DNA from: Christensenellales bacterium
GTDB taxonomy: Bacteria; Bacillota; Clostridia; Christensenellales; SZUA-584
Assembly: GCA_040768905.1 (NCBI GenBank)
Contig: JAXGMA010000001.1
Coordinates: 1,619,806 to 1,683,805 of the forward strand
Direction: 5' to 3'
DNA length: 64,000 nt
How positions within the stretch are numbered: the stretch's first letter is position 1; each line of letters starts with the position of its first letter. Below the pieces are notes generated by a model. It was not told where the DNA came from. It saw only the letters and a program-made list of their open reading frames with translations, and ran no database searches. Below, in pieces: positions 3,930-64,000 of the stretch. Both the position numbers and the translations under genes were made by a program.

Positions 3930-4296
3930 CATTTGTTCTTTTGGCCGGTTATGCGACTTTTCCCTGAATGTCCGATTAGTCTGCATTCATGAATGACTGC
4001 CTCCGGTAATACTATAGATTTCTTGTCCAGTTTCCGCTATTTCAGTATCACCGGGCCTCTTTTTTGAGTAAAAGCTTTGCAGGCAGTATTTGTCCGCAAA
4101 CTTGAAACGGCTACACTAAGCTAGACAGAGAAAATACGGGCAACCAGTCCTTAAAGCTCTCGTTTCCCCTGATCCACAGCCCCAAGACGTCCTTTATACC
4201 TTCAAGAGTGATGCTAATCAATAACGGCCTTCTTGATTATTCGCCCGTCCTGACGCGATAGTGAATGGCGTCAATATAGATAACGGCATAGATACA
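3930..4296 (-). pseudogene. IS256-family (Mutator-type) transposase remnant; internal fragment with frameshifts and stops
   Basis: Minus-strand translation gives AVIYIDAIHYRVRTGE, then (shifted frame) IIKKAVID, then ISITLEGIKDVLGLWIRGNESFKDWL. This resembles the conserved IYIDAIHFKVR...G.EGxKEVLG..xGENES core of IS256 transposases. Several stops interrupt it, and both termini are missing. Confidence 0.5.
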
Positions 4297-5037
4297 ATAT
4301 ACATATTCAAACACCGCTGCCCGAACCGACTCTTTCGTCTCATAGTGCGTCCAGTGTATCAGCTCTTTCTTCATAGTCGCAAAGAAGCTCTCCGACCATG
4401 CGTTGTCGCCCGGCATCCCCACTCGCGAGAAGCTCTGATGCAGCCCATATTGCTGCAGCATTCCCATTACGGCTTTTGATGTATACTGGCTGCCCCTGTC
4501 GCTATGGAAGATGCAGCCTTCAGCCAGTTTGTGCCTTGCTATCATCGCCAGTATCGCATTGATCACGAGTTCCTTTGTCATTCTGTCTGCCATATGATCT
4601 CCAAGTATCTCGCCAGTTACGATATCCCTGACCACACAGTGATACATGAACCCCTCGTCCGTTCTCAGGTATGTAATATCGCTTGTAAGCCCCATTCTCG
4701 GCTTGATCGGAAATTCTTGATCCCTTAGGATATTCGGATACCCATCGCCTCTGGCTTTCTTGCTGTTCGTCAGGCTCTTGGCTCTATGCCTGTTGTGGCA
4801 TGAGTCCAAATACATCTCGGCCATGTATTCAGCGCATTTCTTGCGGCCTATGCTTTCGCCTTTTTTGCGAAGTTCTGCGGTAATCCTATCTGGTCCATAC
4901 GTACCACGACTCTCGTCAAACTCTTTTTTGATTCTTTCCTTTAAATGCGCTTCCCGTCTTTCAATGGCTACCCGATTCCTGAGCCAGGCATAATATCCTG
5001 TTCGCTCTATTTTCAGAATTGCGGCCCACTTCGCCAC
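4237..5037 (-). CDS. IS3-family transposase OrfB (DDE/rve integrase domain), C-terminally truncated and read through into IS256 debris
   Basis: Motifs include GTYGPDRITAELRK, TSDITY, FHSDRGSQYTS and GMPGDNAWSESFF (DDE catalytic region). The reading frame is -1 relative to OrfA. The usual C-terminal FYNxxRxH segment is replaced by an IS256-like sequence. Confidence 0.85.
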   Translation of the reverse strand: MAKWAAILKIERTGYYAWLRNRVAIERREAHLKERIKKEFDESRGTYGPDRITAELRKKGESIGRKKCAEYMAEMYLDSCHNRHRAKSLTNSKKARGDGYPNILRDQEFPIKPRMGLTSDITYLRTDEGFMYHCVVRDIVTGEILGDHMADRMTKELVINAILAMIARHKLAEGCIFHSDRGSQYTSKAVMGMLQQYGLHQSFSRVGMPGDNAWSESFFATMKKELIHWTHYETKESVRAAVFEYVYCIYAVIYIDAIHYRVRTGE

Positions 5038-9703: not shown

Positions 9704-9729
9704 AGACATGAAAAATGAGGTGATTGAAC

Positions 9730-10875
9730 ATGTCAAAAAAGCGCAACCCCAAGGGCATGGGTACCGTTCGGCAGCGTGTCGATGGAACATATGAAGGTCG
9801 CATAGTTATCAATGGCAAACGCAAATCATTCTTTGCCAAAAAGCAAGGTGATGTTATTAAAGCTATGCGCGCTGCAAAAAAAGCTGCTGATGAGGGTATT
9901 TATTTTGAGCCAACTAAGCTAACGATAAGTAAATGGCTTGATGTTTGGCTTGACGAGCATGTAACTTCTTCTGTGAAACCTCTTACATATGCTACATATA
10001 AAACACAATGCGAAAATCACATCAAACCTGAGCTTGGAAAGATTAATTTACCTATGCTGAACGCGACGCAAATACAGAAACTCTATAACGACCTCTCACG
10101 GATTAAGGGGTTGTCCGCAAAGACCATCAAGAATACCCACGGAGTGCTGCATAAGGCACTCTCAAAGGCTGTAGCACTGCGATATATCAGTTATAATCCA
10201 TCGGATGCTTGTACATTACCTAAAGTTGAAAAGAAGGAAATACAGCCGTTTGAGCAAGCTGAGATAAGAGCATTCTTAGATGAAATAGCGGAAGGCGAAC
10301 GGTTAAAGGATCTGTTCACCGTTGCTTTGTTTACCGGTATTCGTGAAGGCGAGATTTGCGGCCTATCTTGGGAATCGATAGACTTTGAGAGGGGTACTAT
10401 CTGTATAAAACAACAACTATCAAAGGAAAAGAAGCCTAACGCGAAATACTATATCGCTGCTACAAAAAACGATAAATCCAGAACTATCACTCCTGCACCG
10501 TTTGTTATGTCAATTCTAAAGGAAGTAAAAAGGGAGCAAAGCGAAAATAAGCTAAAGGCAGGCCGTGCTTGGTCAAACTCATGGAACTTGGTGTTTACGA
10601 ATGAGATAGGTTCTCATTTATGCCCACAGACCGTGCTGAAACGCTTTAAAAGGATTGCTGCAAGAATAGGTAATCCTAGTGCTCGCTTTCATGATTTGCG
10701 CCATACATACGCTGTTACAGCGTTACAGGAAGGTGACGATATAAAGACAGTACAAACTAACCTTGGCCATGCCACTGCATCCTTTACGTTGGATGTATAC
10801 GGCCATGTCAGCGAAAAAATGAAGGCTGAGTCAGCAGCCAGAATGGAAGCGTTTATACAAAGCATTAAAAGATAA
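9730..10875 (+). CDS. int: Tyrosine site-specific recombinase (phage-type integrase)
   Basis: It has an N-terminal SAM-like domain, the catalytic-region motifs GIREGEICGL, HDLRHTYA and LGHATASFTLDVYGH, and a GAGGTGA RBS before the ATG at 9730. Confidence 0.9.
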   Translation: MSKKRNPKGMGTVRQRVDGTYEGRIVINGKRKSFFAKKQGDVIKAMRAAKKAADEGIYFEPTKLTISKWLDVWLDEHVTSSVKPLTYATYKTQCENHIKPELGKINLPMLNATQIQKLYNDLSRIKGLSAKTIKNTHGVLHKALSKAVALRYISYNPSDACTLPKVEKKEIQPFEQAEIRAFLDEIAEGERLKDLFTVALFTGIREGEICGLSWESIDFERGTICIKQQLSKEKKPNAKYYIAATKNDKSRTITPAPFVMSILKEVKREQSENKLKAGRAWSNSWNLVFTNEIGSHLCPQTVLKRFKRIAARIGNPSARFHDLRHTYAVTALQEGDDIKTVQTNLGHATASFTLDVYGHVSEKMKAESAARMEAFIQSIKR

Positions 10876-52931: not shown

Positions 52932-53008
52932 GCGCCTGTAGCTCAGCAGGATAGAGCAACGGCCTTCTAAGCCGTGTGCCCGGGGTTCGAGTCCCTGCAG
53001 GCGCGCCA
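52932..53008 (+). tRNA. tRNA-Arg (anticodon TCT), CCA encoded
   Basis: Cloverleaf GCGCCTG/TA/GCTC..GAGC/ACGGC-CTTCTAA-GCCGT/.../CAGGCGC-G-CCA. Confidence 0.88.
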
Positions 53009-53013
53009 AACAT

Positions 53014-53091
53014 GGTGGGTATAGCTCAGTAGGTTAGAGCGCCAGGTTGTGGCCCTGGAGGCCGTGGGTTCAAATCCCACTACTCACCCCA
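53014..53091 (+). tRNA. tRNA-His (anticodon GTG) with encoded G-1, CCA encoded
   Basis: Anticodon arm CCAGG-TTGTGGC-CCTGG. An extra 5' G pairs with discriminator C. Confidence 0.88.
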
Positions 53092-53104
53092 TTATGCCAT
53101 ACAT

Positions 53105-53179
53105 TGGGGTGTAGCCAAGCGGTAAGGCACGGGACTTTGACTCCCGCATTCGTAGGTTCAAATCCTGCCACCCCAGCCA
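53105..53179 (+). tRNA. tRNA-Gln (anticodon TTG), CCA encoded
   Basis: Acceptor TGGGGTG/CACCCCA and anticodon arm CGGGA-CTTTGAC-TCCCG. Confidence 0.88.
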
Positions 53180-53189
53180 ATACAGATTT

Positions 53190-53265
53190 GACCCATTAGC
53201 TCAGTTGGTAGAGCACTTGACTTTTAATCAAGGTGTCCCGCGTTCGAGTCGCGGATGGGTCACCA
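53190..53265 (+). tRNA. tRNA-Lys (anticodon TTT), CCA encoded
   Basis: Acceptor GACCCAT/ATGGGTC and anticodon arm CTTGA-CTTTTAA-TCAAG. Confidence 0.9.
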
Positions 53266-53451
53266 TTTTAGCCCTTTAAGCAGCGGAAAAACCGTTGTTT
53301 AAGGGGTTGTTATTTTAATTAGCTTAAGATTATATTGTTTGTCGCTATTTATGCCACTACATCCATTCAAACTATTAAGCCTATTTAGATGCAAAATTCG
53401 AGTCAAACCTATTATAAAAGCTTGTTCACATTTAATACTCTATTTCCTATT

Positions 53452-53471
53452 GGATGGATGGATGGATGGAT
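53452..53471. repeat. Tetranucleotide microsatellite (GGAT)x5
   Basis: The intergenic sequence reads GGATGGATGGATGGATGGAT. Confidence 0.95.
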
Positions 53472-53513
53472 AATTACGTGTTGTCGCTATGCTGCTATGC
53501 CCCAGACTTTTGC

Positions 53514-54344
53514 TTACTTGGGAAGCTTTTTCTTAAAAACCCTACATAAGAATGCGTAGACTGAAAAAACAATTGATTCATCAATACGGTATGGACTGCT
53601 AATTTGACGTTCTAATTCACTTATCATATGAATAATGAATCGAATCCTCGCTTCAATTTCATTTAATGGTACTTCAGACCAATCATAACTATCATCTATA
53701 CATAGAATACGAGACAACCCATGATAATGATTAAACGCTTCAAGCATAGAATTTTTTTTATTGTTTGAGTCGTCAACATTCATAAAATGTTGGGCAGTAT
53801 AAAATAAACTACGTGTTCTTGCATTAAAAAACTGCCTCTTTGAATAAGAAAAACCGTTATAAATAATAATTTCATCCCAATTAAAAGAGGTTGTATTTAT
53901 GCTAAGTTTGTTTAAAATTTCGTTATATACGTGATCATGATTATATTCAAATCCGTAAAGATGAATTGGTTTTAATTCAACATTAAAAACTTCATGTATT
54001 GCTTCTATAAAAAATGCCATAGTTTCAATTAAGTAATAGTAATGAATATGCAAATATTTCAACTCTCTTCTTCTAATTCTTTCTTTATTATAAAAAGCAA
54101 TGAAATAAGTCGTAAAACAAACAGAGAGAATAAATATTTGAAATTGTTTAAGGGCTGCTATAAAATTTGCATAATTACCAAATAAATAAAACACAAAAAC
54201 AGCTAGTAAAACTAATGCAAAAATAGGCGACATCATTATTAGTTCATATACTGCTCTACAAAAAAATCTAATTATTCTGCTACATATCAATAAAAGACGA
54301 TATATTATTCTTTTCATACAATTAGTCCCCATTTTTCTAAGCAT
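53514..54344 (-). CDS. Orphan hypothetical membrane-anchored protein in an AT-rich islet
   Basis: 276-aa ORF with very AT-rich codon usage, unlike its neighbours. It has two or three N-terminal hydrophobic helices and a helical soluble domain of about 190 aa. No family is recognised. Confidence 0.45.
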   Translation of the reverse strand: MLRKMGTNCMKRIIYRLLLICSRIIRFFCRAVYELIMMSPIFALVLLAVFVFYLFGNYANFIAALKQFQIFILSVCFTTYFIAFYNKERIRRRELKYLHIHYYYLIETMAFFIEAIHEVFNVELKPIHLYGFEYNHDHVYNEILNKLSINTTSFNWDEIIIYNGFSYSKRQFFNARTRSLFYTAQHFMNVDDSNNKKNSMLEAFNHYHGLSRILCIDDSYDWSEVPLNEIEARIRFIIHMISELERQISSPYRIDESIVFSVYAFLCRVFKKKLPK

Positions 54345-54605
54345 ATTATATTTTTTTTCTACTAATAATGCAAATTTGGATTATTAGTATATTTAAATTA
54401 TAATTGAAAATATTTTCAAACCGCTATACTCCCGGACTCTTTCATTTTATTTTTGCTTTGCCGTTACAACAGTCTTTCTTATGCAAAAATGCGCAGCAAA
54501 ACTGCCCAATGAGGAAAAGCCATGTTATAATGCACTTAATAGCATCGTGTTTAAAAACTGTCGATAAAAAAAAGAATGAATCAGCCTAAAAAACGCATCG
54601 CATAA

Positions 54606-55277
54606 TTTGGTTTCTGTACGGTATCCTTTTGGAAACGCACCCTCTTTAATATTATCAAAAAAATTTTAAAAGACTGGGCACACTGCTGCGCTGTATGCTT
54701 CTTTCCATATTATGTTATTTATGACCAGGAAGAGCGTTCATATGTCAGCTTACACTTTTCGGAGAGTACCTACCTGCTTAGTGTTGCACGCAACATAAGC
54801 GGCGATCCCGATGTTTCCAAAGGGCAGCTCCAATGATGGGAATTTGAGGAGTTTTATACCTACAGCTATGCTTATACACAAGATGGGTTCATACTCAACA
54901 TCGAGGGGCATGACGAAAATTACATAGTCACCATTGACGGTTTTGCGTCAGCGCAAATCACGCATATCGAGTCAAACGACACCATACTGTATTACAGAGA
55001 CCTTTCATTCATTGCAGCAGAAGACACCTGCCAACCATCAAACCCGGCTGTCGGTGCATGGCATTATGAAGGACGCATTATCCGGCTCAACGCGGACTTT
55101 TCAGCGACTCTTGAGCGCGGTGACACAACGGTTTACGGAACATACACTTTTGACGATATCACCATGAAGGGGATACTCACGCTTGTTTCCGCGGATATAG
55201 TACGAGACTTCAACATAAGCATGTCTGCAGGTACGCTATATTTGGAAGATATACCCTACACGCCTTACGTTGAGTAA
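54606..55277 (+). pseudogene. Decayed gene: long open frame with no start codon and an in-frame TGA at 54834-54836
   Basis: The single frame reads ...YYVIYDQEERSYVSLHFSESTYLLSVARNISGDPDVSKGQLQ*WEFEEFYTYSYAYTQDGFILNIEGHDENYIVTIDGF...LYLEDIPYTPYVE*. It has coding-like composition but no ATG/GTG/TTG near its 5' end. Confidence 0.5.
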
Positions 55278-55418
55278 AAAATGCCATCGATATCTGATGC
55301 CGCGGTATCGGCGGCAATGCCTGCAGACAAGGAGAAGAATATGTCAGTCACGAATGCTGAGGCAAAAAGCTTTTTTCCTGATCAAAGCCAGACTCGGTCT
55401 TGACAATGATTGGAGTAA

Positions 55419-57395
55419 ATGTTTAAATTGTATCAGATTATGAAAGAGAAATTGTTGAAATTCTTCCTGAGGCTGCTGAAACTTGACCCCATTAAGGATC
55501 TTGATACTGCGCATATCGTAACCGACAGCGAGGGCAATGGCTCAGAAAACAGCCTCGGCGGTGCTGAATCTGCCATCGAAACAGATAGCGTGGGCGATGG
55601 CTCAGAAAACAGCCTCGACGATACTGAAGCTGCCGCCGAAGCAGACAGCGCGGAAGATGGCTCAGAAAACAGCCTCGGCGGTGCTGAACCTGCCGCTGAA
55701 GCAGAAACTCCTGCTGCTAAAGACAGTCAGCCATTGACAAAGGCCAAAGAAAAATCCGGCAAGCGCTGGAGCAAAAAAAAGATTGTTTTCCTTAGTGCTG
55801 CGGCTCTCCTCGTACTGCTGCTTATCGGAACCGGCACATGGGCTTATTCCATTTGGGAAGACCCGATGGCACAGTTCAAAAATGTGGCAGAGCAAATCAC
55901 AACACCGCCTCCGACTGCGGCTCATTCCACTGATACCCCAACGGATCCAACACCCGAGCCCACCATCGACCCCTATGAGGCATTACTGGCGCAAGCCGAT
56001 ACAGGCTTTTTAAAAGACATCGTCAACATCATGCTGATCGGAGTCGATCATTCTGAAGAGCGTCAAACATGGAGAGGAAAAAAAGCCTTCCACAGCGACG
56101 TGATGATCGTGCTGTCTGTCAATAAAAACACCGGCGCTGCCAACATGATCTCACTGCCGCGCGACACCTATGCCAAGATCCCCGGTGTCAAGGGCATCTA
56201 TAAGCTCAATGCGTCTATCGACTGCGGCGGCGGCTGGCCCACCGAAGGCGGTTTTAATAAAGTCTGCGAGGCGGCGCAATGGATGCTGGGCGGCATCCCG
56301 GTGGATTACTATTACGCGGTAGACATGAATGCAGTGAAGAGCCTGGTGGATGTCATCGGCGGCGTCCATGATTTTGATGTAGAAATGAGTTTTAAGATGC
56401 AGGGGCGCTCCTACTCCAAAGGCGTGCAGGATATGGACGGCCAGGCCGTGCTGGATTACCTGCGCGTGCGCAAGGGTGTTTCGGAAGCGGGCGACTTAAA
56501 CCGCATCGCCCGACAGAAAAAAATGCTGGTTGCGATATTTGAAGAAATCAAGCAGAAAGGAATGCTGACAAGTATCCCTGCGCTGCTGGATGCATTTGAC
56601 GGCAATCTCTATACTAACACAACGTTTGCGCAAACGGCGGCGCTGGCGGCCTTTGCCTACAACGTGTCCCCCGAAAGCATCGGCATGTATTCGATGGGCG
56701 GAAAATACAACTATGGGATATTCAACTGGAACTTTGTGCTGACTGACCAGAATGCCCGCGTCAAGCTGATCAAGAAGATATACGGCGTTGATGTGGAAAA
56801 GTACGGCGAGTATTCTTCCGCGGCAGCCATTGCAAAATGGAACCGGATGCAGCTGCCCGTGGTCAGAGCCGGTGCATCCAGTGTACTCTCCAGTGTCAAG
56901 ACCAGGCTTGATGCGGATGCAAAACTGCCCATATATGGCGAACCCACGCCCACGCCAAAACCCACCCCGGAGCCAACACCAGTTCCGCCCGAACCAACGC
57001 CGGATCCAACGCCCGATCCAACGCCGGATCCAACGCCCGATCCAACGCCCGATCCAACGCCCGATCCGCCCGAACCCACAGACGAGCCGACAAGCACGCC
57101 GGAAAGCTCCGGAGACCCTCTGGCGCTGTTGAGTGCACACGGCGCTGTCAGTGTGCGTATATCGCTCTTATCTTCGGGCATACCATCCGGATATCGCCAG
57201 TTTCTGCCCGCTGGCAAGGAGTGGGCGCTGTACAATAAGACAAAAAGCGGCCTTGACTCACTGACGGCCAACACCGACAAGATCGAGCAGCTCAAGGCCG
57301 ATATTGGAGCTCTGTGCAAAATGTTCTCCATCCGCCTTCCCAATTGGAGGGTGAATTATGAAAGCAGCAACGAGATCAAAGTCGATTTCCGGTAA
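55419..57395 (+). CDS. LytR-CpsA-Psr (LCP) family cell-wall glycopolymer ligase with repeat-rich termini
   Basis: It has a cytoplasmic N-terminus with three 20-aa repeats, a single TM segment and an LCP core (IMLIGVDHSEERQ...SDVMIVLSVN...ISLPRDTY). A C-terminal domain follows a PTPDPTPDP repeat linker. Confidence 0.85.
   Translation: MFKLYQIMKEKLLKFFLRLLKLDPIKDLDTAHIVTDSEGNGSENSLGGAESAIETDSVGDGSENSLDDTEAAAEADSAEDGSENSLGGAEPAAEAETPAAKDSQPLTKAKEKSGKRWSKKKIVFLSAAALLVLLLIGTGTWAYSIWEDPMAQFKNVAEQITTPPPTAAHSTDTPTDPTPEPTIDPYEALLAQADTGFLKDIVNIMLIGVDHSEERQTWRGKKAFHSDVMIVLSVNKNTGAANMISLPRDTYAKIPGVKGIYKLNASIDCGGGWPTEGGFNKVCEAAQWMLGGIPVDYYYAVDMNAVKSLVDVIGGVHDFDVEMSFKMQGRSYSKGVQDMDGQAVLDYLRVRKGVSEAGDLNRIARQKKMLVAIFEEIKQKGMLTSIPALLDAFDGNLYTNTTFAQTAALAAFAYNVSPESIGMYSMGGKYNYGIFNWNFVLTDQNARVKLIKKIYGVDVEKYGEYSSAAAIAKWNRMQLPVVRAGASSVLSSVKTRLDADAKLPIYGEPTPTPKPTPEPTPVPPEPTPDPTPDPTPDPTPDPTPDPTPDPPEPTDEPTSTPESSGDPLALLSAHGAVSVRISLLSSGIPSGYRQFLPAGKEWALYNKTKSGLDSLTANTDKIEQLKADIGALCKMFSIRLPNWRVNYESSNEIKVDFR
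55524..55703 (+). repeat. Three tandem 60-bp coding repeats (20-aa units D-S-x-G-x-GSENSL-x-x-x-E-x-A-x-E-x)
   Basis: The units start at 55524, 55584 and 55644. They share the core ATGGCTCAGAAAACAGCCTCG. Confidence 0.9.
56991..57074 (+). repeat. Tandem 12-bp coding repeat (GATCCAACGCCS)n encoding (PTPD)n
   Basis: About six or seven consecutive units encode PEPTPDPTPDPTPDPTPDPTPDPTPDPPEP. Confidence 0.9.
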
Positions 57396-57468: not shown

Positions 57469-57732
57469 TTATTTGTCTGCTTTTTTGGCTAATGACTTCT
57501 CCAGATTTTGCATCTTTTTATTTCTGAAGAACAGTTTGATCCTTTTCCAAAAAACGCCGACTGCAACACCGCTCGCTATGACGACGCCGGCAACGATCTG
57601 TACAATATAGGATGTAGCGGCGGGGTCAATATAGGCATACGCCGTGGTAGAGAGCATGAGCGTCATCAACATAAAATAAACGATAAAAACCCCGAAATTC
57701 TGTAAAGCTCTTTTCATTTTTTCCTCCATCAA
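57469..57732 (-). CDS. Small hypothetical membrane protein (2 TM) at the distal end of the phosphonate operon
   Basis: 87-aa ORF with two hydrophobic segments and a basic C-terminus. It lies 3 nt after the reductase gene. Confidence 0.4.
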   Translation of the reverse strand: MMEEKMKRALQNFGVFIVYFMLMTLMLSTTAYAYIDPAATSYIVQIVAGVVIASGVAVGVFWKRIKLFFRNKKMQNLEKSLAKKADK

Positions 57733-57735
57733 TGT

Positions 57736-58872
57736 TTATAAAAGATTCTTTAAAATTTTAATCACTGATTCCCGTTCCATTGGAAAAGGATTATTATCCA
57801 TACGCCCAAGTGTAAAAGCTTCTTGAGCGATACCGTCAATCATATGATCAAAGATCCCAAAAGCCGAAAGCCTAAGTTCCTGGATCCCCCGCGTGACACC
57901 GTTTAGCCATGTATCGAACCCCTCGGCACTGCCGAAAAGCCTTATGATTTCTGTCAGTTCAGGCACAGCCTCTGCGTTGATTTTTATCATCGCAGAAAGC
58001 GTGATGGCTGCCGCGAAACCATGTTCGACGCCGTGATTCAATGTCAGCGGGTATGAAATGCTGTGGCATGCGGTCGTTTTTGTCATTGAAAAAGCCAGCC
58101 CTGCCAGTAAAGAACCCAGGCACATCTCTTTTCTGGCTTCCGGGTCATCCGCGCCGTCAAGGGCAGAAGGCAAAGCGCACTTGATGCACTCGACAGCATG
58201 AAGGGCAAGCGCCTGAGAAAGCGGGTTCCTCTTCCGCGCCCAGAAAGCTTCCATCGCGTGGCTCAACGCATCAAGCCCGGTCGAGAGCGTCAGCCTTGGC
58301 GGCATGCTTTTTGTCAGCTCAGGGATCATAAACGCGTACTTGGGAAAACATCCGGGATGTTCGACAGACAGCTTTTTTCTGTACTTAAAATCCCAGATCG
58401 TGGCCCATTTTGTCACTTCCGATCCGGTACCGGCCGTGGTGGGCACTGCGATTATACCGGGCGGCTCATAGCCTTGAAAAAATGACTTATGCGCGATCGC
58501 CTCCAAGATGCCTTCGTAATCAAGGCCGTGCGTATTCGCCAACCCCTGCAGCGCGGCGATTGCTTTGGCAAGGTCGATACAGCTGCCCCCGCCGATTGCA
58601 AGGATACAATCATATTTATCGGCGCTGCGATGCAGTTTCAAAAAGCCAAGGACATCATCCACAGACGGGTTTGGCCGAATATCGCTGAAAATGCGGTTCT
58701 TTTTCTGCTTTGTGAAGCGGCCGAAATCTTCATACGCTTCTAAGCGTTTCAATGTGCCTTGGCTGGCCATGATCATCACGCGCTTGTCCGCCATGCAAGA
58801 CAGCTGCTCCAACAAAACCGGCATAGAGGTAAAACGTATATCCACAGGTGAAAATGGCTGATATTGCATCAT
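57736..58872 (-). CDS. Iron-containing (group III) alcohol dehydrogenase, probable phosphonoacetaldehyde reductase
   Basis: It has the Fe-ADH motifs AIGGGSCIDLAKA and PTTAGTGSE plus a His-rich metal site (LDALSHAMEAF, ACHSISYPL). It is located directly after the PEP mutase and phosphonopyruvate decarboxylase genes. Confidence 0.72.
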   Translation of the reverse strand: MMQYQPFSPVDIRFTSMPVLLEQLSCMADKRVMIMASQGTLKRLEAYEDFGRFTKQKKNRIFSDIRPNPSVDDVLGFLKLHRSADKYDCILAIGGGSCIDLAKAIAALQGLANTHGLDYEGILEAIAHKSFFQGYEPPGIIAVPTTAGTGSEVTKWATIWDFKYRKKLSVEHPGCFPKYAFMIPELTKSMPPRLTLSTGLDALSHAMEAFWARKRNPLSQALALHAVECIKCALPSALDGADDPEARKEMCLGSLLAGLAFSMTKTTACHSISYPLTLNHGVEHGFAAAITLSAMIKINAEAVPELTEIIRLFGSAEGFDTWLNGVTRGIQELRLSAFGIFDHMIDGIAQEAFTLGRMDNNPFPMERESVIKILKNLL

Positions 58873-58885
58873 GTGGCCTTTCTCC

Positions 58886-60178
58886 TTAATGATCCGGGAT
58901 CAATGTCAGAATCTGCTTGATCGGCAGGCAGTTTTCACTCGCCTCCAGCGACCTGCCGTGTTTGAGTATCTGCTCCGCCGTGCTCTGCATCGCCGGAAAC
59001 ATGCTCCTGATCAGATGGTTCGCATGGATCACGATATTCACGCCGTGCCGCGCCAGCTCTTCTTCTGTGATGGTGTTGTACGTCGTCGGCACAACCACTA
59101 TCGGAATGCTCTTGTTTGTCTTGCGGAACCGTTTACAGAATTCAATGACCTCATCCGGCTTGCCTTTGCACGAATGTATCATGATACCGTCTGCGCCCGC
59201 TTTAACATAGGCGTTGCAGCGGTTTATGGCATCCTCCATGCCTTTCTCCAATATGAGGCTTTCACAGCGCGCTATGATCATAAAATCAGAGGTCTTGAGT
59301 GCATTCTTGCCGGCTTTGATTTTTTCACAGAAGTCTTCAATACCGGCCTGCGTCTGGGCGGCCTCTGTACCAAAAAGCGAATTCTTTTTCAGCCCGTCTT
59401 TATCCTCTATGATGATGGCGGAAACCCCTTTGCGTTCCAGCGTGCGTATATTGAACACAAAGTGATCGGTGAGTCCGCCCGTATCACCATCCAGGATGAT
59501 CGGTTTGGTCGTGACATCCATGATTTCTTCGATCGTACGTATCCGCGATGTCATATCCACCAACTCGATATCCGGCTTTCCCTTCACTGTTGAATCACAC
59601 AGGCTCGAAACCCACATCGCATCAAACTCTTTGGTTCCCTTTATTGTCTCTACTTTGGTTTTTTCAGCGATCAGGCCGCTTAATCCGCTGTGTGCCTCAA
59701 TCACAGATAAACAGGGCTTGTAACTCAGCAGCTTTTTCAGCCGGGAGCGCCTGTTTTCCGGCATAGCCAGCACTTTATCGAGCTGCGTTATGATATCCTC
59801 AGTAGGCGTATGCGTATAAGGAAACTCGATAAGCTCCCCGCCCCACTGCTTAAGCTGTGCGATGACCCTCTCGCGGATCTCCGCCTGGTAACCGGTCGTC
59901 CAGTTGTCGCCGTGTACGACGATGTCAGGCCGCAGTTTCTGAAGTATTGCGTCGTATTCCAAAGAGTCCTGAACCACCACTTTTGAAACACACCGAAGGC
60001 TGCTGAACATCTCGATACGTTCCCGAAGCGGGATCAGCGGATACCGTTTGTATGACACGATCACTTCGTCCGTCAACACACCCACGGTGAGTTCCCCAAG
60101 TTGTGCAGCTTTGTTTAATATGTTCAAATGTCCGCAGTGGATGATGTCTGTGCTAAAACATGTATACACACGCTTCAT
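58886..60178 (-). CDS. Fusion of a HIGH-motif cytidylyltransferase-like domain (TagD-like) with phosphoenolpyruvate phosphomutase
   Basis: The N-terminal 130 aa contains CFSTDIIHCGHLNIL (HxGH). The C-terminal isocitrate-lyase/PEP-mutase fold carries EAHSGLSGLIAE, WVSSLCDS, ILDGDTGG, IIEDK and IARCES. Confidence 0.85.
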   Translation of the reverse strand: MKRVYTCFSTDIIHCGHLNILNKAAQLGELTVGVLTDEVIVSYKRYPLIPLRERIEMFSSLRCVSKVVVQDSLEYDAILQKLRPDIVVHGDNWTTGYQAEIRERVIAQLKQWGGELIEFPYTHTPTEDIITQLDKVLAMPENRRSRLKKLLSYKPCLSVIEAHSGLSGLIAEKTKVETIKGTKEFDAMWVSSLCDSTVKGKPDIELVDMTSRIRTIEEIMDVTTKPIILDGDTGGLTDHFVFNIRTLERKGVSAIIIEDKDGLKKNSLFGTEAAQTQAGIEDFCEKIKAGKNALKTSDFMIIARCESLILEKGMEDAINRCNAYVKAGADGIMIHSCKGKPDEVIEFCKRFRKTNKSIPIVVVPTTYNTITEEELARHGVNIVIHANHLIRSMFPAMQSTAEQILKHGRSLEASENCLPIKQILTLIPDH

Positions 60179-60912
60179 AGGGTGATCCTTTCTGATCCAA
60201 TCATGCTTTTGAATCGGGATGAATATACGCTTAAGTCTTCTGCATTATCAATCTCATTACAAAGCCGGCCGCCAAGCTCTTCAGTAAATAAATCCATTTT
60301 GTCCAATATGTTGTTAAGTGCTTTTTCGGCATAGACATCTCGCTGCCCGTTGGCACAAAACCTTTTGATCTGTTCAAGCCACAGCAGCATATCCTTTTTC
60401 TGCATATGGTAAATTGGCTGGCAGGCCACACAATCCGCTCCGAAGTACTCGATTCCGATCGCCTTGACCCTGCTGTCTGTTATCCTTGCCTTGAAATCCT
60501 TTTCCGGAAGCGGCGCAGAAGCGTCGACCGCGACGCAGCTTTTCCTCCTGTGCAGCAGATCACTCATCACCGAAGGCTCAAGCACCAGATCGCCGTGGAG
60601 CAGGATGATTTCATCATGTAAAAAATCGCTGGCGCAATCGATCGAGTAAATATAATTCGTGTTTTCATAATCCGGGTTGGCAATAAACTTGATATCCATC
60701 TTCACTTTCAGCGACCCGACATAGCCAGACAGCACATCGGCAAACGGGCCGGTGGTGATGATGGTTTCGCGGATGCCGGCCCTTTGGAGCAGATGCAGCT
60801 GCCAGCTTATGATAGAAAAACCTGCGCCGATATCCGCCATACACTTTGGTCGATCGTTTGTCAGCGCACCCATGCGCTTGCCGACCCCGGAATTCAATAT
60901 TAAAGCCTTCAT
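60175..60912 (-). CDS. LicC/PntC-like nucleotidyltransferase (NTP_transferase fold)
   Basis: It starts MKALILNSGVGKRMG (G-x-G-x-R loop) and is 245 aa. It overlaps both neighbours by 4 nt. Confidence 0.72.
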   Translation of the reverse strand: MKALILNSGVGKRMGALTNDRPKCMADIGAGFSIISWQLHLLQRAGIRETIITTGPFADVLSGYVGSLKVKMDIKFIANPDYENTNYIYSIDCASDFLHDEIILLHGDLVLEPSVMSDLLHRRKSCVAVDASAPLPEKDFKARITDSRVKAIGIEYFGADCVACQPIYHMQKKDMLLWLEQIKRFCANGQRDVYAEKALNNILDKMDLFTEELGGRLCNEIDNAEDLSVYSSRFKSMIGSERITL

Positions 60913-62048
60913 TGTCTTTTTCCGCCACTCAGATAAGCCATCAGCGCCTTTTTGTTCTCCAAAGGCGTCGTGTCTGGACGCCCAAGATCAGCCCTTGCGC
61001 CCAATGCCGCCATCACTTCGATCAGCGCCGTCCCGCGCTGCGCTTTGGCTTCATCAATACACTGTTTCAGCCCCGATTCATCCGATGTACGCCTGTGAAA
61101 ACCGTAACCGAACGATTTGGCAACTGCGCAAAAATCAGTCTCTCCCTTTGCCACAGGCATTCCGCCCACCGATTCGTGCGCCCCGTTATTCATCACGACA
61201 TGCACCAGATTGCCGCATTGACAACGCGCTGCGAGAAGCGCATTTCCAAGATGCATCACCATAGAGCCGTCTCCGTCAATGCACCATACCCTTCTGTCCC
61301 GTTTCTCAAGAGCGATGCCCAGAGCGATCATGGATGCATGCCCCATCGAGCCGACTGTCAGAAAATCTTGGGCATGCCCTTGTCCACTCGCTTTTCGGAT
61401 CTCAAAGAGTTCCCTTGACGCTTTGCCGGTCGTCGAGACGAAGATATCCGTTTCGTCCGCATTTTCCGCGATGATACGGATCGCCGCCTCCCGCGCCATT
61501 GTGTTGCTGTTTTTGTAGTCTGCTTTTTTCTGTGATGACAGTGCGCCTTTTCTTATAACAAAAGCGCTGCTTTTGCCCTGCTGCACATGCGCCGATGCCT
61601 GCCTGATCCACTGTGTGAACTCTTCTTCCGATGTCTCTTTGGACATGACATAACAGGCGATACCCAGCATGTCAAACATGGGCAATGTGATACTGCCCTG
61701 AAAAGCATGCTGCGGCTCATCTTTTACACCTGGTTCCCCGCGCCAGCCAATTACAAAAATGCATGGTATCGCGTATACGGCGCCGCTGAGCAGTGACGCG
61801 ACAGGGTTGACCGCATTCCCGATTCCGCTGTTTTGCATATAGACAAGTGCGGGTTTTCCCGTTGCCAAATAATGCCCTGCCGCAAGGCCGACAGCACCGC
61901 CTTCGTTGGCCGCCACGATATGTTTTTCGCCAATCCCATATTCGGTGTACAGAAGATCGCACAGAGCGCTCAGCTGTGAATCGGGCACGCCGTAATAACG
62001 GCTGACGCCTAAACTCTGAACCCCCTTTAAAAAAACCCTTACATCCAT
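60909..62048 (-). CDS. Phosphonopyruvate decarboxylase (ThDP-dependent)
   Basis: MDVRVFLKGVQSLGVSRYYGVPDSQLSAL...VYMQNSGIGNAVNP...GSMGHASMIALG...IDGDGSMVMHLG is the typical AepY/Ppd layout. The start at 62048 lies 1 nt after the upstream stop. The longer ORF-track N-terminus is rejected. Confidence 0.85.
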   Translation of the reverse strand: MDVRVFLKGVQSLGVSRYYGVPDSQLSALCDLLYTEYGIGEKHIVAANEGGAVGLAAGHYLATGKPALVYMQNSGIGNAVNPVASLLSGAVYAIPCIFVIGWRGEPGVKDEPQHAFQGSITLPMFDMLGIACYVMSKETSEEEFTQWIRQASAHVQQGKSSAFVIRKGALSSQKKADYKNSNTMAREAAIRIIAENADETDIFVSTTGKASRELFEIRKASGQGHAQDFLTVGSMGHASMIALGIALEKRDRRVWCIDGDGSMVMHLGNALLAARCQCGNLVHVVMNNGAHESVGGMPVAKGETDFCAVAKSFGYGFHRRTSDESGLKQCIDEAKAQRGTALIEVMAALGARADLGRPDTTPLENKKALMAYLSGGKRQ

Positions 62049-62049
62049 A

Positions 62050-64000
62050 CTAATTCTTTTCCTTGCTGGTGAGCTTATCGATGATGTATTGCCCCCCGAT
62101 CTGCGCACTCTGGCCGAAATGTGCGATATACGTCTGCATGATCTCTGATATCTTCGCAGCAAATTTTTCACTTGAGCCCAATAGCTCTTCAACGGCAGCG
62201 CACAGCTTATCAAGGCTGAGCGGATCGATACTTTTCCCGATCTGGCTGCGCAGCATTATTTCCAAAGGTTTGGCTTCGATCACATCGTATTGGGGATTAT
62301 TGATCTTAGGAGGCGTGTCGATAAAAATCACAGGCCTCTTTGTGACAAATGCGAACTCATACGCCGTTCCCGACCAGTCGGTAATGACAATATCTGAATT
62401 GAAAATCGAGCTGCTGTCCGAAAAATCCAGCTCAAAGGAAAGATCGTCTCCTTCATAACATTTATAGTGTTCCACGATGGCATTCATTTTCACGGCATAA
62501 CGTTTGACATACTCGGGATGCGGCCTTACAACCACCTTAAAGCCTTTGCCAAGCAATGCGTCGAGGATCTCATGGATGCAGCTGTCGAGGATATTGTGCT
62601 CCTGCCATGACGGTGCGATGAGTATCTTGCTGCTTTCGCGCTTTCGTTTGTCCATCATATCGTAACGCGACTGCAGTTCCTCGAGCATGGCGTAGCCGCA
62701 TAAAACAAGGTTCTTTTCCGGCAGATGATAATGCTGTTCTGTCTGCCGGATTTCATCTATCTGGAACGCACCGACACAAAAGATAGTATCGTAATGATCG
62801 AGCGCACCCTTTTTGAGAACCATGGTCGTGCTCAGCGGATAATGAAACATGTACACATATTCAATATCCTTTCGCACCAGCGAACGCTTCAGATGGTACT
62901 GCTGAAGATCCGACATCGTCATCACGAACATATCCGCCTCTATTTTCATAAACAGCACGATCAGCCTGTTGTCGTCAATATAATACGGGCGAAGCTGGGG
63001 GCTTTCTGATGCAAACACCTGGTCGTCTGGATCGCTCGTCACATAATGGATGACTATCTTCGAATTCTCTGTGATGTAGTCGATAACGCCTTTGAAATAT
63101 TTATAGAACCCGCTCTTTTCAGAATAAAAAACCAACTGTTTGACATTGTCTTCGTCAAAAAAGCGCCTGTAATCCTGCTTTGCCCTGGCTTTCTGTTCGG
63201 CGGTCGGCTTGAGCTTCTTTTCAAGCTCCCTGCTTTTTGCCAGTGCCAGCTTGCTCTTCTCCAAAGCCTCATAATCAATGTATTTTTTCGGGGGATACAT
63301 CAAATTGACAGCCAGCATCAGCAGCAGGGATATCAGATTGCTCAATATCCAGTAAAAGCCGACGCCTGCAGGCACGATAAAAGCGAAGTAGAATGAAAAA
63401 AACATCAGGAACAACGCCATTCCCCAGCGTCCGAACCATCCGGCCTCACGCTGCAAGACATTGACTTTATTCTGAACGGCCGAAAGCAGTACGGCACTCC
63501 CGCCGGAGAGGATCGGAACGAGCAGCATGATGTTCCACTCAAGCGCGGGTATAGCGGCCAGGTTGACACCCAAAAAATGAAGGTCAAGCGTCTTTATTTT
63601 CGCGATAGCGTCGGCAGCGCCGGAGACTGGGACACCCGAGAATGCGGTCGTATAGAACGGATCGTTGATCAGTTCGATGACTTTAAGCTGCGCACCGGAC
63701 CCAAGCTCTGCTGTACCAAGTATCTCAGACGCTTTTTGCACCAACGCATTGATGGTATTGGCATCAATGTGCAGCAAGTGCTGCAGCGGGTTATACACGA
63801 CGGCAATCAGCCCGAGGATGATCGGTATCTGTATCAGCAACGGAATCGTGCCGGCAAGGGGCTTATAATTCTCCTGTTTATATAACGCCAATTGCTTCTC
63901 GGCAACCGTGTCCCGGCTGCCGACACAAGACGCTGCGATCTCATTGATCCGCGGCTGAAGCTTTACCATTTTTATTGAATTTTTTTGCACCCATATGTTG
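62050..64000 (-). CDS. Fusion protein: YidC/Oxa1-like membrane insertase-type N-domain plus CDP-glycerol glycerophosphotransferase (TagB/TagF)-like C-domain. The 5' end probably lies beyond the window.
   Basis: The N-terminal part has KLQPRINEI...LALYKQENYKPLAGTIPLLIQIPIILGL and GVGFYWILSNL (YidC-family TM2/TM3-type motifs). The C-terminal 400 aa carries ILIAPSWQE, VRPHP, ITDWSGTAYEFAFVTKRPVIFID (TagF family). The frame is open to the window edge. Confidence 0.68.
   Translation of the reverse strand, partial: NIWVQKNSIKMVKLQPRINEIAASCVGSRDTVAEKQLALYKQENYKPLAGTIPLLIQIPIILGLIAVVYNPLQHLLHIDANTINALVQKASEILGTAELGSGAQLKVIELINDPFYTTAFSGVPVSGAADAIAKIKTLDLHFLGVNLAAIPALEWNIMLLVPILSGGSAVLLSAVQNKVNVLQREAGWFGRWGMALFLMFFSFYFAFIVPAGVGFYWILSNLISLLLMLAVNLMYPPKKYIDYEALEKSKLALAKSRELEKKLKPTAEQKARAKQDYRRFFDEDNVKQLVFYSEKSGFYKYFKGVIDYITENSKIVIHYVTSDPDDQVFASESPQLRPYYIDDNRLIVLFMKIEADMFVMTMSDLQQYHLKRSLVRKDIEYVYMFHYPLSTTMVLKKGALDHYDTIFCVGAFQIDEIRQTEQHYHLPEKNLVLCGYAMLEELQSRYDMMDKRKRESSKILIAPSWQEHNILDSCIHEILDALLGKGFKVVVRPHPEYVKRYAVKMNAIVEHYKCYEGDDLSFELDFSDSSSIFNSDIVITDWSGTAYEFAFVTKRPVIFIDTPPKINNPQYDVIEAKPLEIMLRSQIGKSIDPLSLDKLCAAVEELLGSSEKFAAKISEIMQTYIAHFGQSAQIGGQYIIDKLTSKEKN

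Follow-up and report, generated by a model that had tools for sequence, protein, structure and literature searches.

Organization of the phosphonate operon

The window analysed here is a stretch of 64 000 nucleotides from the Christensenellales bacterium assembly GCA_040768905.1 (contig JAXGMA010000001.1, positions 1,619,806 to 1,683,805, forward strand), and its right-hand end, positions 57469-64000, carries six open reading frames (ORFs) on the minus strand that combine enzymes of phosphonate synthesis with a protein fusing a YidC-like and a TagF-like domain. An initial annotation of this DNA, made from the sequence alone, had described a tightly coupled phosphonate operon, and the ORF coordinates, domain matches and gene junctions confirm its gene content, strand and tight coupling. 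The six genes and their convergent neighbour are as follows, with lengths in amino acids (aa).

57469-57732, minus strand: small membrane protein (‘TM87’, 87 aa) with two hydrophobic segments and no Pfam family
57736-58872, minus strand: Fe/Zn alcohol dehydrogenase (ADH), putative phosphonoacetaldehyde reductase, 378 aa; PF00465 and PF25137
58886-60178, minus strand: Fom1-type fusion of a cytidylyltransferase and phosphoenolpyruvate (PEP) mutase; CTP_transf_like and PEP_mutase
60175-60912, minus strand: LicC/PntC-like nucleotidyltransferase, 245 aa; NTP_transf_3 (PF12804) and PF00483
60909-62048, minus strand: phosphonopyruvate decarboxylase (Ppd), 379 aa; TIGR03297, PF02776 and PF02775
62050-64000, minus strand, cut by the window edge: YidC–TagF-like fusion; 60KD_IMP (PF02096) and Glyphos_transf (PF04464)
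55419-57395, plus strand: LCP (LytR-CpsA-Psr) protein, convergent neighbour; PF03816, 108 bits

Of the junctions, one is a gap of 1 nt, two are ATGA overlaps of 4 nt, and one, which adjoins the ADH gene, is a gap of 13 nt. Ppd starts at the ATG at 62048, which sits 1 nt past the stop codon of the YidC–TagF fusion, and not at the upstream TTG at 62213. For the small membrane protein the most likely start is the ATG at 57717, which has GGAGG in front of it and gives a product of 82 aa. A simple terminator scan found no terminator behind the operon.

The ORF of the fusion is open to the window edge, with no stop codon upstream. The complete protein (P0001) has 693 aa and agrees fully (100% identity) with the part encoded in the window, where 44 N-terminal residues are cut off. 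Flanking DNA was obtained through a 98%-identical cluster member (P0123), whose contig (L011) matches window positions 60461-64000 at 97.8% identity, ungapped over 3540 nt. Upstream of the fusion this contig has one extra gene on the same strand, which encodes a protein of 591 aa without a Pfam match and is preceded by a perfect TTGACA-17-TATAAT promoter; a divergent thiamine-transporter gene, pgi, minCDE and a penicillin-binding protein gene lie farther upstream. The window genome has its own copy of the 591-aa protein (P0138, 97% identical to that of the contig), and we therefore count seven genes in this operon of a Christensenellaceae-type Clostridia genome, six of them in the window and the first beyond position 64000. 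The cluster thus continues past the window edge, as had been suspected, by one more operon gene. Its members had been named correctly, but the fusion is not the first gene, as the 591-aa gene precedes it in the 97.8%-identical contig. The glycosyltransferases and flippases that had been suggested as targets for a search beyond 64000 were not found upstream: in the 10 kb past the window edge, the related contig has no aminotransferase, glycosyltransferase or flippase.

Enzymes of the phosphonate cassette

The first two enzymes of the predicted pathway both pass curated cutoffs, in agreement with the initial proposal that PEP mutase and the decarboxylase provide the entry to phosphonates. PEP mutase scores 411 bits with TIGR02320 (cutoff 320), and its translation includes the catalytic motif EDKDGLKKNS, of the EDKxxxxxNS form that tells Ppm apart from isocitrate-lyase relatives (PMC6697681). 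Ppd scores 443 bits with TIGR03297 (cutoff 312.5), and both of its thiamine pyrophosphate domains (PF02776 and PF02775) were found. The mutase occupies residues 145-430 of its fusion protein, and residues 1-135 form the cytidylyltransferase domain (PF01467, 58 bits), which has an HCGH motif of the HxGH type. This domain is 51% identical to the Fom1 cytidylyltransferase (CyTase; 5X3D) over 120 ungapped residues (E = 7.5e-37), and its match to TagD, the glycerol-3-phosphate cytidylyltransferase, is far weaker (E = 4.5e-7). According to work cited in PMC6697681, the Fom1 CyTase domain is the enzyme shown to make the cytidine monophosphate (CMP) conjugate of 2-hydroxyethylphosphonate (HEP), CMP-HEP.

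The ADH belongs to group III (PF00465) and also matches PF25137. Its closest solved relative is 6JKO/6JKP; 6JKP, a sulfoacetaldehyde reductase, serves as the structural template for PhpC (PMC13576164). Homologues with 47-70% identity are named in NCBI and JGI as phosphonoacetaldehyde reductase or phosphonate metabolism-associated iron-containing alcohol dehydrogenase. Among 94 related loci collected by genome and metagenome scans, the ADH lies inside the cassette in every complete phosphonate-type relative, whether the gene order is the same as in the window (L001, L002, L005, L007 and L092-L094) or shuffled (L019).

The best solved relatives of the LicC-like enzyme are LicC (1JYK, E = 1.6e-9) and Treponema PntC (6PD1, E = 1.3e-6). 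At the position of the amine-binding Glu104 of PntC it has a histidine, within the motif LLLHGD, in 11 of 11 phosphonate-cassette orthologues, while the position of PntC Glu196 stays Glu and the aminotransferase-fused relatives of the enzyme retain Glu at the Glu104 position. Since the alignment with PntC has low identity, the substitution counts as a lead only, hinting weakly but consistently at a substrate without an amine.

Judged from these sequence features, the product is most likely HEP, activated as CMP-HEP. HEP is favoured over 2-aminoethylphosphonate (AEP) because the ADH is retained, its homologues carry the names given above, the CyTase domain is 51% identical to that of Fom1 and no aminotransferase is found nearby; the operon has none, and neither has any phosphonate-type relative with a complete locus. 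The HEP branch and the nucleotidyl activation of the phosphonate, both of which had been proposed in the initial annotation, are supported. An AEP transaminase just outside the window, which had been named beforehand as evidence to the contrary, does not occur in the 10 kb past the edge. We also considered a secreted antibiotic of the fosfomycin or phosphinothricin kind, and rejected it because the operon and its flanks have no genes for a radical S-adenosylmethionine methyltransferase, an epoxidase or a nonribosomal peptide synthetase, and no resistance genes.

The YidC–TagF fusion protein

The fusion protein matches 60KD_IMP at 86 bits (122 bits in a full-length relative) and Glyphos_transf (PF04464) at 31.1 bits (cutoff 22.1). 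A profile of its family matches YidC structures with an E-value of 2e-21, with a conserved lysine (Lys38) in place of the groove arginine. The AlphaFold2 model of P0001, with a mean confidence (pLDDT) of 88, has the five-helix YidC core, a cytoplasmic hairpin, an insert between transmembrane helices 2 and 3 (TM2-TM3), an amphipathic linker and a GT-B domain. In a Foldseek search with the TagF-like domain, TagF 3L7K was ranked first (E = 5e-10), followed by the TagF-like capsule polymerases 8QOY and 8A0C; on these model-based matches the domain is assigned to TagF as a remote relative. Candidate catalytic histidines are H430, conserved in at least 90% of members, and H538, which is invariant within an RPHP motif. 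In TagF of Staphylococcus epidermidis the two catalytic histidines are H444 and H584.

Because it is positioned after the last helix of the YidC topology, the TagF-like domain should be cytoplasmic, a placement that suits a donor activated with CMP or cytidine diphosphate (CDP). In vitro, YidC of Escherichia coli acts as a scramblase of phospholipids (PMC11047089).

The LtaS/EptA-like ectoenzyme and the small membrane protein

The AlphaFold2 model of the 591-aa protein (pLDDT 74) has five N-terminal membrane helices followed by an ectodomain, and its best Foldseek matches are LtaS (4UOO), EptA (5FGN), PbgA and MCR-1, at E-values of about 1e-6. Six residues are invariant in the family (D241, E242, T282, H451, D509 and H510), and we infer from them a metal site and a threonine nucleophile. 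The sulfatase family PF00884 is reached by 11 of 27 family members (best E = 1.3e-7); the copy of the window genome (P0138) falls under the cutoff, with 17.5 bits against 25, and a single-sequence search of the PDB returned nothing meaningful. The modelled fold thus suggests a membrane-anchored LtaS/EptA-like ectoenzyme, as a remote assignment. Two to four tandem LtaS-like paralogues occur upstream of the fusion in L003, L006, L009, L001 and L084, and one in the window lineage; the tandem copies recall how LtaS paralogues elsewhere are divided into primase and polymerase or between several acceptors.

The 87-aa protein has two helices, the first of them signal-like, together with a conserved AYIDPxxxxYxIQxxAG motif and a basic tail. 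Many lineages have it fused to the LtaS-like protein, as the N-terminal part of the latter.

A conserved module with exchangeable donor cassettes

Clustering of the fusion proteins at 90% identity reduces the first 91 of the related loci to 54 clusters, and neighbours were counted in the 23 clusters that have at least 3 kb on each side of the fusion. An LtaS-like neighbour is present in 22 of these 23, and a homologue of the 87-aa protein adjoins the fusion in 20. In some lineages a single polypeptide of 1200-1545 aa joins Sulfatase/LtaS-like, YidC and TagF-like domains (P0176, P0199, P0178, P0187 and P0207), and both orders, Sulfatase–YidC–TagF and YidC–TagF–Sulfatase, are seen. As far as gene order and domain content define it, the unit conserved over about 57 lineages has three members, namely the YidC–TagF fusion, the small membrane protein and the LtaS-like enzyme. 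The machine is widespread: the TagF-like domain is found in 503 clusters at 50% identity (E-values up to 1e-30), and the machine as a whole has at least 515 metagenome matches, which include abundant human-gut lineages. Database labels for the module proteins are ‘YidC’ or ‘hypothetical’ only, and in the searchable literature we found only incidental co-mentions of YidC with glycerophosphotransferase, TagF or LtaS and no description of the delivery module.

The genes beside this unit vary among lineages as follows.

Phosphonate genes: about 14 lineages (L001, L002, L004, L005, L007, L011, L012, L013, L019, L026, L045, L083 and L092-L094)
NTP-transferase–aminotransferase fusion: eight clusters, one of them a human-gut cluster of 30 contigs
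NTP-transferase and choline kinase: several lineages
IspD-like protein and short-chain dehydrogenase/reductase (SDR): L008
No donor cassette: L003, L006 and L009, with the fusion joined directly to the small protein

The fusions of L003, L006 and L009 are 72-78% identical to that of the window, yet these loci lack the four phosphonate genes. Since the donor genes beside the module vary or are absent, we regard the four phosphonate genes as a cassette inserted into a three-part module. Across the related loci the module has no transporter or flippase gene as a conserved companion.

Several of these loci have features of their own. At positions 14158-15972 of L052, and likewise in L014, L015, L043, L046, L085 and L087, a LicC-like nucleotidyltransferase is fused to a class I/II aminotransferase in a protein of about 605 aa beside the YidC–TagF module; it may make a CDP-amino-alcohol donor, and the L052-type lineage is prevalent in the human gut, with 30 near-identical contigs. 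At L045 (10001-12127) the fusion gene comes in two pieces, a YidC fragment of 77 aa and a remainder of 617 aa; the gene could be frameshifted or a pseudogene, or the assembly could be in error. The opposite strand of the same locus encodes a triple NTP_transf_3–CTP_transf_like–PEP_mutase fusion. L093 (JBLNDG010000246.1) is a Clostridia-type phosphonate locus that was deposited as a Caulobacteraceae metagenome-assembled genome, probably through a binning error.

The convergent LCP gene lies 73 nt from the operon, and the initial annotation had made its product the ligase that anchors the finished polymer. We considered this adjacency as functional and downgraded it after counting its conservation: only 4 of the 94 loci (L022, L024, L029 and L092) have an LCP gene at a distance of up to about 9 kb from the fusion, so that it is probably a neighbour and not a module member. 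No TagGH or Wzx-like exporter gene is conserved with the fusion either. The delivery half of the earlier proposal, in which a TagF-like enzyme transfers the phosphonate to a wall polymer that LCP then anchors, thus needs revision, as the LtaS-like ectoenzyme and the 87-aa protein are the conserved partners. The LCP gene itself contains two tandem repeats, one of a 60-bp unit in three copies (55515-55694) that encodes an acidic N-terminal repeat and one of a 12-bp unit in 6.8 copies (56986-57067) that encodes a (PTPD)n linker near the C-terminus.

Proposed mechanism

We propose that the cassette makes CMP-HEP and hands it to a three-part envelope machine composed of the YidC–TagF fusion, the LtaS/EptA-like enzyme and the 87-aa protein, a scheme for which we see an even balance of chances. 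It draws on enzyme families, topology logic, synteny and natural fusions, and from these we infer the transfer, translocation and surface steps. The order of the cassette steps is modelled on the early steps of fosfomycin and phosphinothricin synthesis. PEP mutase would convert PEP to phosphonopyruvate, Ppd would pull the reaction forward to phosphonoacetaldehyde and the PhpC-type Fe-ADH would reduce this to HEP, from which the Fom1-type cytidylyltransferase domain, the LicC-like enzyme or both would form CMP-HEP. With CMP-HEP as the donor, the cytoplasmic TagF-like domain would then load the HEP-phosphonyl group onto a hydroxyl of an acceptor in the membrane, a lipid or lipid-linked glycan, and release CMP. 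The YidC-like domain, relatives of which scramble lipids, may let the charged head group cross the membrane.

Outside, the LtaS/EptA-like enzyme, together with the 87-aa protein, would pass the HEP-phosphonyl group via a Thr-linked intermediate onto a surface polymer; LtaS, EptA and GacH, which use lipid donors, offer a parallel for this step. Alternatively, the ectoenzyme might chain HEP units in the last step. Because HEP keeps a free hydroxyl, such polymerization is chemically possible, if speculative. Related bacteria would run the same machine with other donor cassettes. The widest form of the proposal is a self-contained pathway in which a lipid-linked phospho- or phosphono-head-group donor is moved by a repurposed YidC translocase and transferred or polymerized outside, in this organism into a lipoteichoic-acid-like poly(2-hydroxyethylphosphonate), that is, a teichoic acid with C-P bonds; we consider it quite unlikely in this full form.

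Several observations weigh against the proposed mechanism. The PF04464 match is partial (profile positions 181-291 of 367), the fold match to TagF 3L7K has a template modelling score (target) of 0.57, and PDB sequence searches with the TagF-like domain, as a single sequence and as a 57-member profile, reach no TagF and only YidC. A second cytidylyltransferase beside the Fom1-type domain is not accounted for, and the best NCBIfam model for the ADH, TIGR03405 (Phn_Fe-ADH), gives only 253 bits, under its cutoff of 424. All canonical YidC motifs are kept, and the YidC part may therefore be no more than an anchor with the function of an ordinary insertase. It would then be a working insertase, either housekeeping or dedicated to the LtaS-like and 87-aa proteins, that does no more for the TagF-like enzyme than tether it, and the product would be translocated by another agent or would need no translocation. 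The conserved positive charge in the groove (Lys38) fits such a role, as do the annotation of the family in databases as YidC only and the 87-aa protein, since small single-span proteins like it are typical YidC clients. However, the fusion, triple fusions with the ectoenzyme included, persists over hundreds of clusters at 50% identity, and because such persistence is not expected of a chance tether, we think an insertase role of this kind unlikely. No other translocase is conserved nearby, and the TM2-TM3 insert of about 85 residues is not known from ordinary Gram-positive YidC.

A route of the wall-teichoic-acid type would place the whole assembly inside the cell: the TagF-like domain would add or polymerize HEP-phosphonyl units on an undecaprenyl-linked polymer, an unlinked transporter would export it, the convergent LCP protein would ligate it to peptidoglycan and the LtaS-like protein would have a side role. 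TagF is indeed the best fold match and the LCP gene is very close; moreover, a convergent LCP gene also closes L092, a phosphonate-type locus that is more distantly related, and L093 is set among glycosyltransferase and Bac_transf genes. Yet the LCP gene is near the fusion in so few loci, and TagGH, a Wzx-type exporter and linkage-unit genes are not conserved, while the LtaS-like protein, conserved in 22 of 23 lineages and even fused to YidC–TagF, would be left unexplained by a side role; we find this route doubtful. The identity of the phosphonate can be disputed separately, as AEP or another phosphonate might be made with a transaminase that may be encoded elsewhere in the 2.47-Mb genome, leaving the ADH to act in salvage or in some other role. 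The AEP branch is the most frequent one, with 56% of ppm neighbourhoods, and AEP clusters also contain PF01467–Ppm fusions (PMC8942020); the low TIGR03405 score of the ADH points the same way, and PhpC-type enzymes may also act catabolically (PMC13576164). We nevertheless judge a product other than HEP very unlikely, given that no aminotransferase occurs in the operon, in the 10 kb past the window edge or in any complete phosphonate-type relative, that the ADH is always within the cassette and that the LicC-like enzyme has His in place of the amine-binding Glu of PntC, which its aminotransferase-linked relatives keep.

Other features of the window

A tRNA cluster at 52932-53265 comprises Arg-TCT, His-GTG, Gln-TTG and Lys-TTT genes. 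Next to it, positions 53300-55400 form a low-GC island (27-37% GC, compared with about 53% in the flanks), which contains a minus-strand ORF of 276 aa (53514-54344) with no Pfam or NCBIfam match and looks like foreign DNA inserted beside the tRNA cluster. Farther away, the products at 4237-5037 and 9724-10875 have, by eye, transposase-like and phage-type integrase-like N-termini, with an 811-aa ORF between them, and may mark another mobile region.

Implications and comparison with known systems

The cassette adds a member to the known HEP branch, which accounts for 8.5% of ppm neighbourhoods (PMC8942020), and the delivery module is a new arrangement of known families. The passage of phosphonates from a CMP conjugate to the bacterial surface is a recognized gap in knowledge: the steps after C-P bond formation ‘remain enigmatic’ (Rice et al. 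2019, PMC6697681). The locus offers a concrete and widespread candidate for this passage. If the proposed mechanism is right, this would be the first YidC domain genetically wired to the export of a small molecule or lipid head group, and it would provide a physiological test bed for the lipid scrambling recently reported for insertases. That donor cassettes are exchanged suggests a general way for gut Clostridia to vary the charge and antigenicity of their envelope.

Among characterized pathways, the early fosfomycin steps of Streptomyces (Fom1, the Fom2 decarboxylase and the FomC reductase, leading to CMP-HEP) share both the enzyme set and the domain fusion with the cassette. In contrast to fosfomycin synthesis, there are no Fom3/Fom4-type tailoring genes here, a LicC-like nucleotidyltransferase is added, and the product would pass to a membrane phosphotransferase instead of becoming an antibiotic. 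The Pnt pathways with PntC share the logic of surface phosphonates and a LicC-like CMP activation beside ppm (Rice et al. 2019, PMC6697681). The characterized PntCs act on AEP, and their clusters have an AEP transaminase and LicD-like transferases (PMC6697681), whereas the operon described here has an ADH and no transaminase, His for the amine-binding Glu, and a TagF-like transferase. HEP-modified exopolysaccharide is found in actinomycetes such as Stackebrandtia nassauensis, according to studies cited in PMC8942020 and PMC13576164. Such systems also have a PhpC-type cluster, and HEP ends there on a surface glycan, but they belong to another phylum, and no YidC–TagF or LtaS-like machine is reported from them.

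TagF/TarF and the TagF-like capsule polymerases (3L7K, 8QOY and 8A0C) resemble the second domain of the fusion in their GT-B fold, their match to PF04464 and their nature as membrane-associated cytoplasmic enzymes. TagF-type enzymes use CDP-activated alcohol phosphates and release CMP. The domain in the fusion differs in its remote sequence, in having a YidC domain in place of the peripheral membrane-binding domain, in its likely CMP-phosphonate donor and in the missing link to TagGH and LCP. In the Lic pathway of Streptococcus pneumoniae (LicABC, LicD and TacF), a small head group, activated in the form of a CMP/CDP conjugate, goes to a lipid-linked teichoic acid precursor that is then flipped. 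Some relatives of the module come close to it in having a choline kinase and LicC-like cassette, but the present locus has no LicD and no TacF-type flippase, and the TagF-like and YidC-like domains stand in those places. The ectoenzyme shares with LtaS, EptA (MCR-1) and GacH the five N-terminal helices, the alkaline-phosphatase-fold ectodomain and the conserved Asp/Glu, Thr and Asp-His residues. Those enzymes draw their head group from bulk phospholipids, either phosphatidylglycerol or phosphatidylethanolamine; here, because a cytoplasmic transferase and a YidC-like domain are coupled genetically, and sometimes physically, to the ectoenzyme, a purpose-made donor is suggested.

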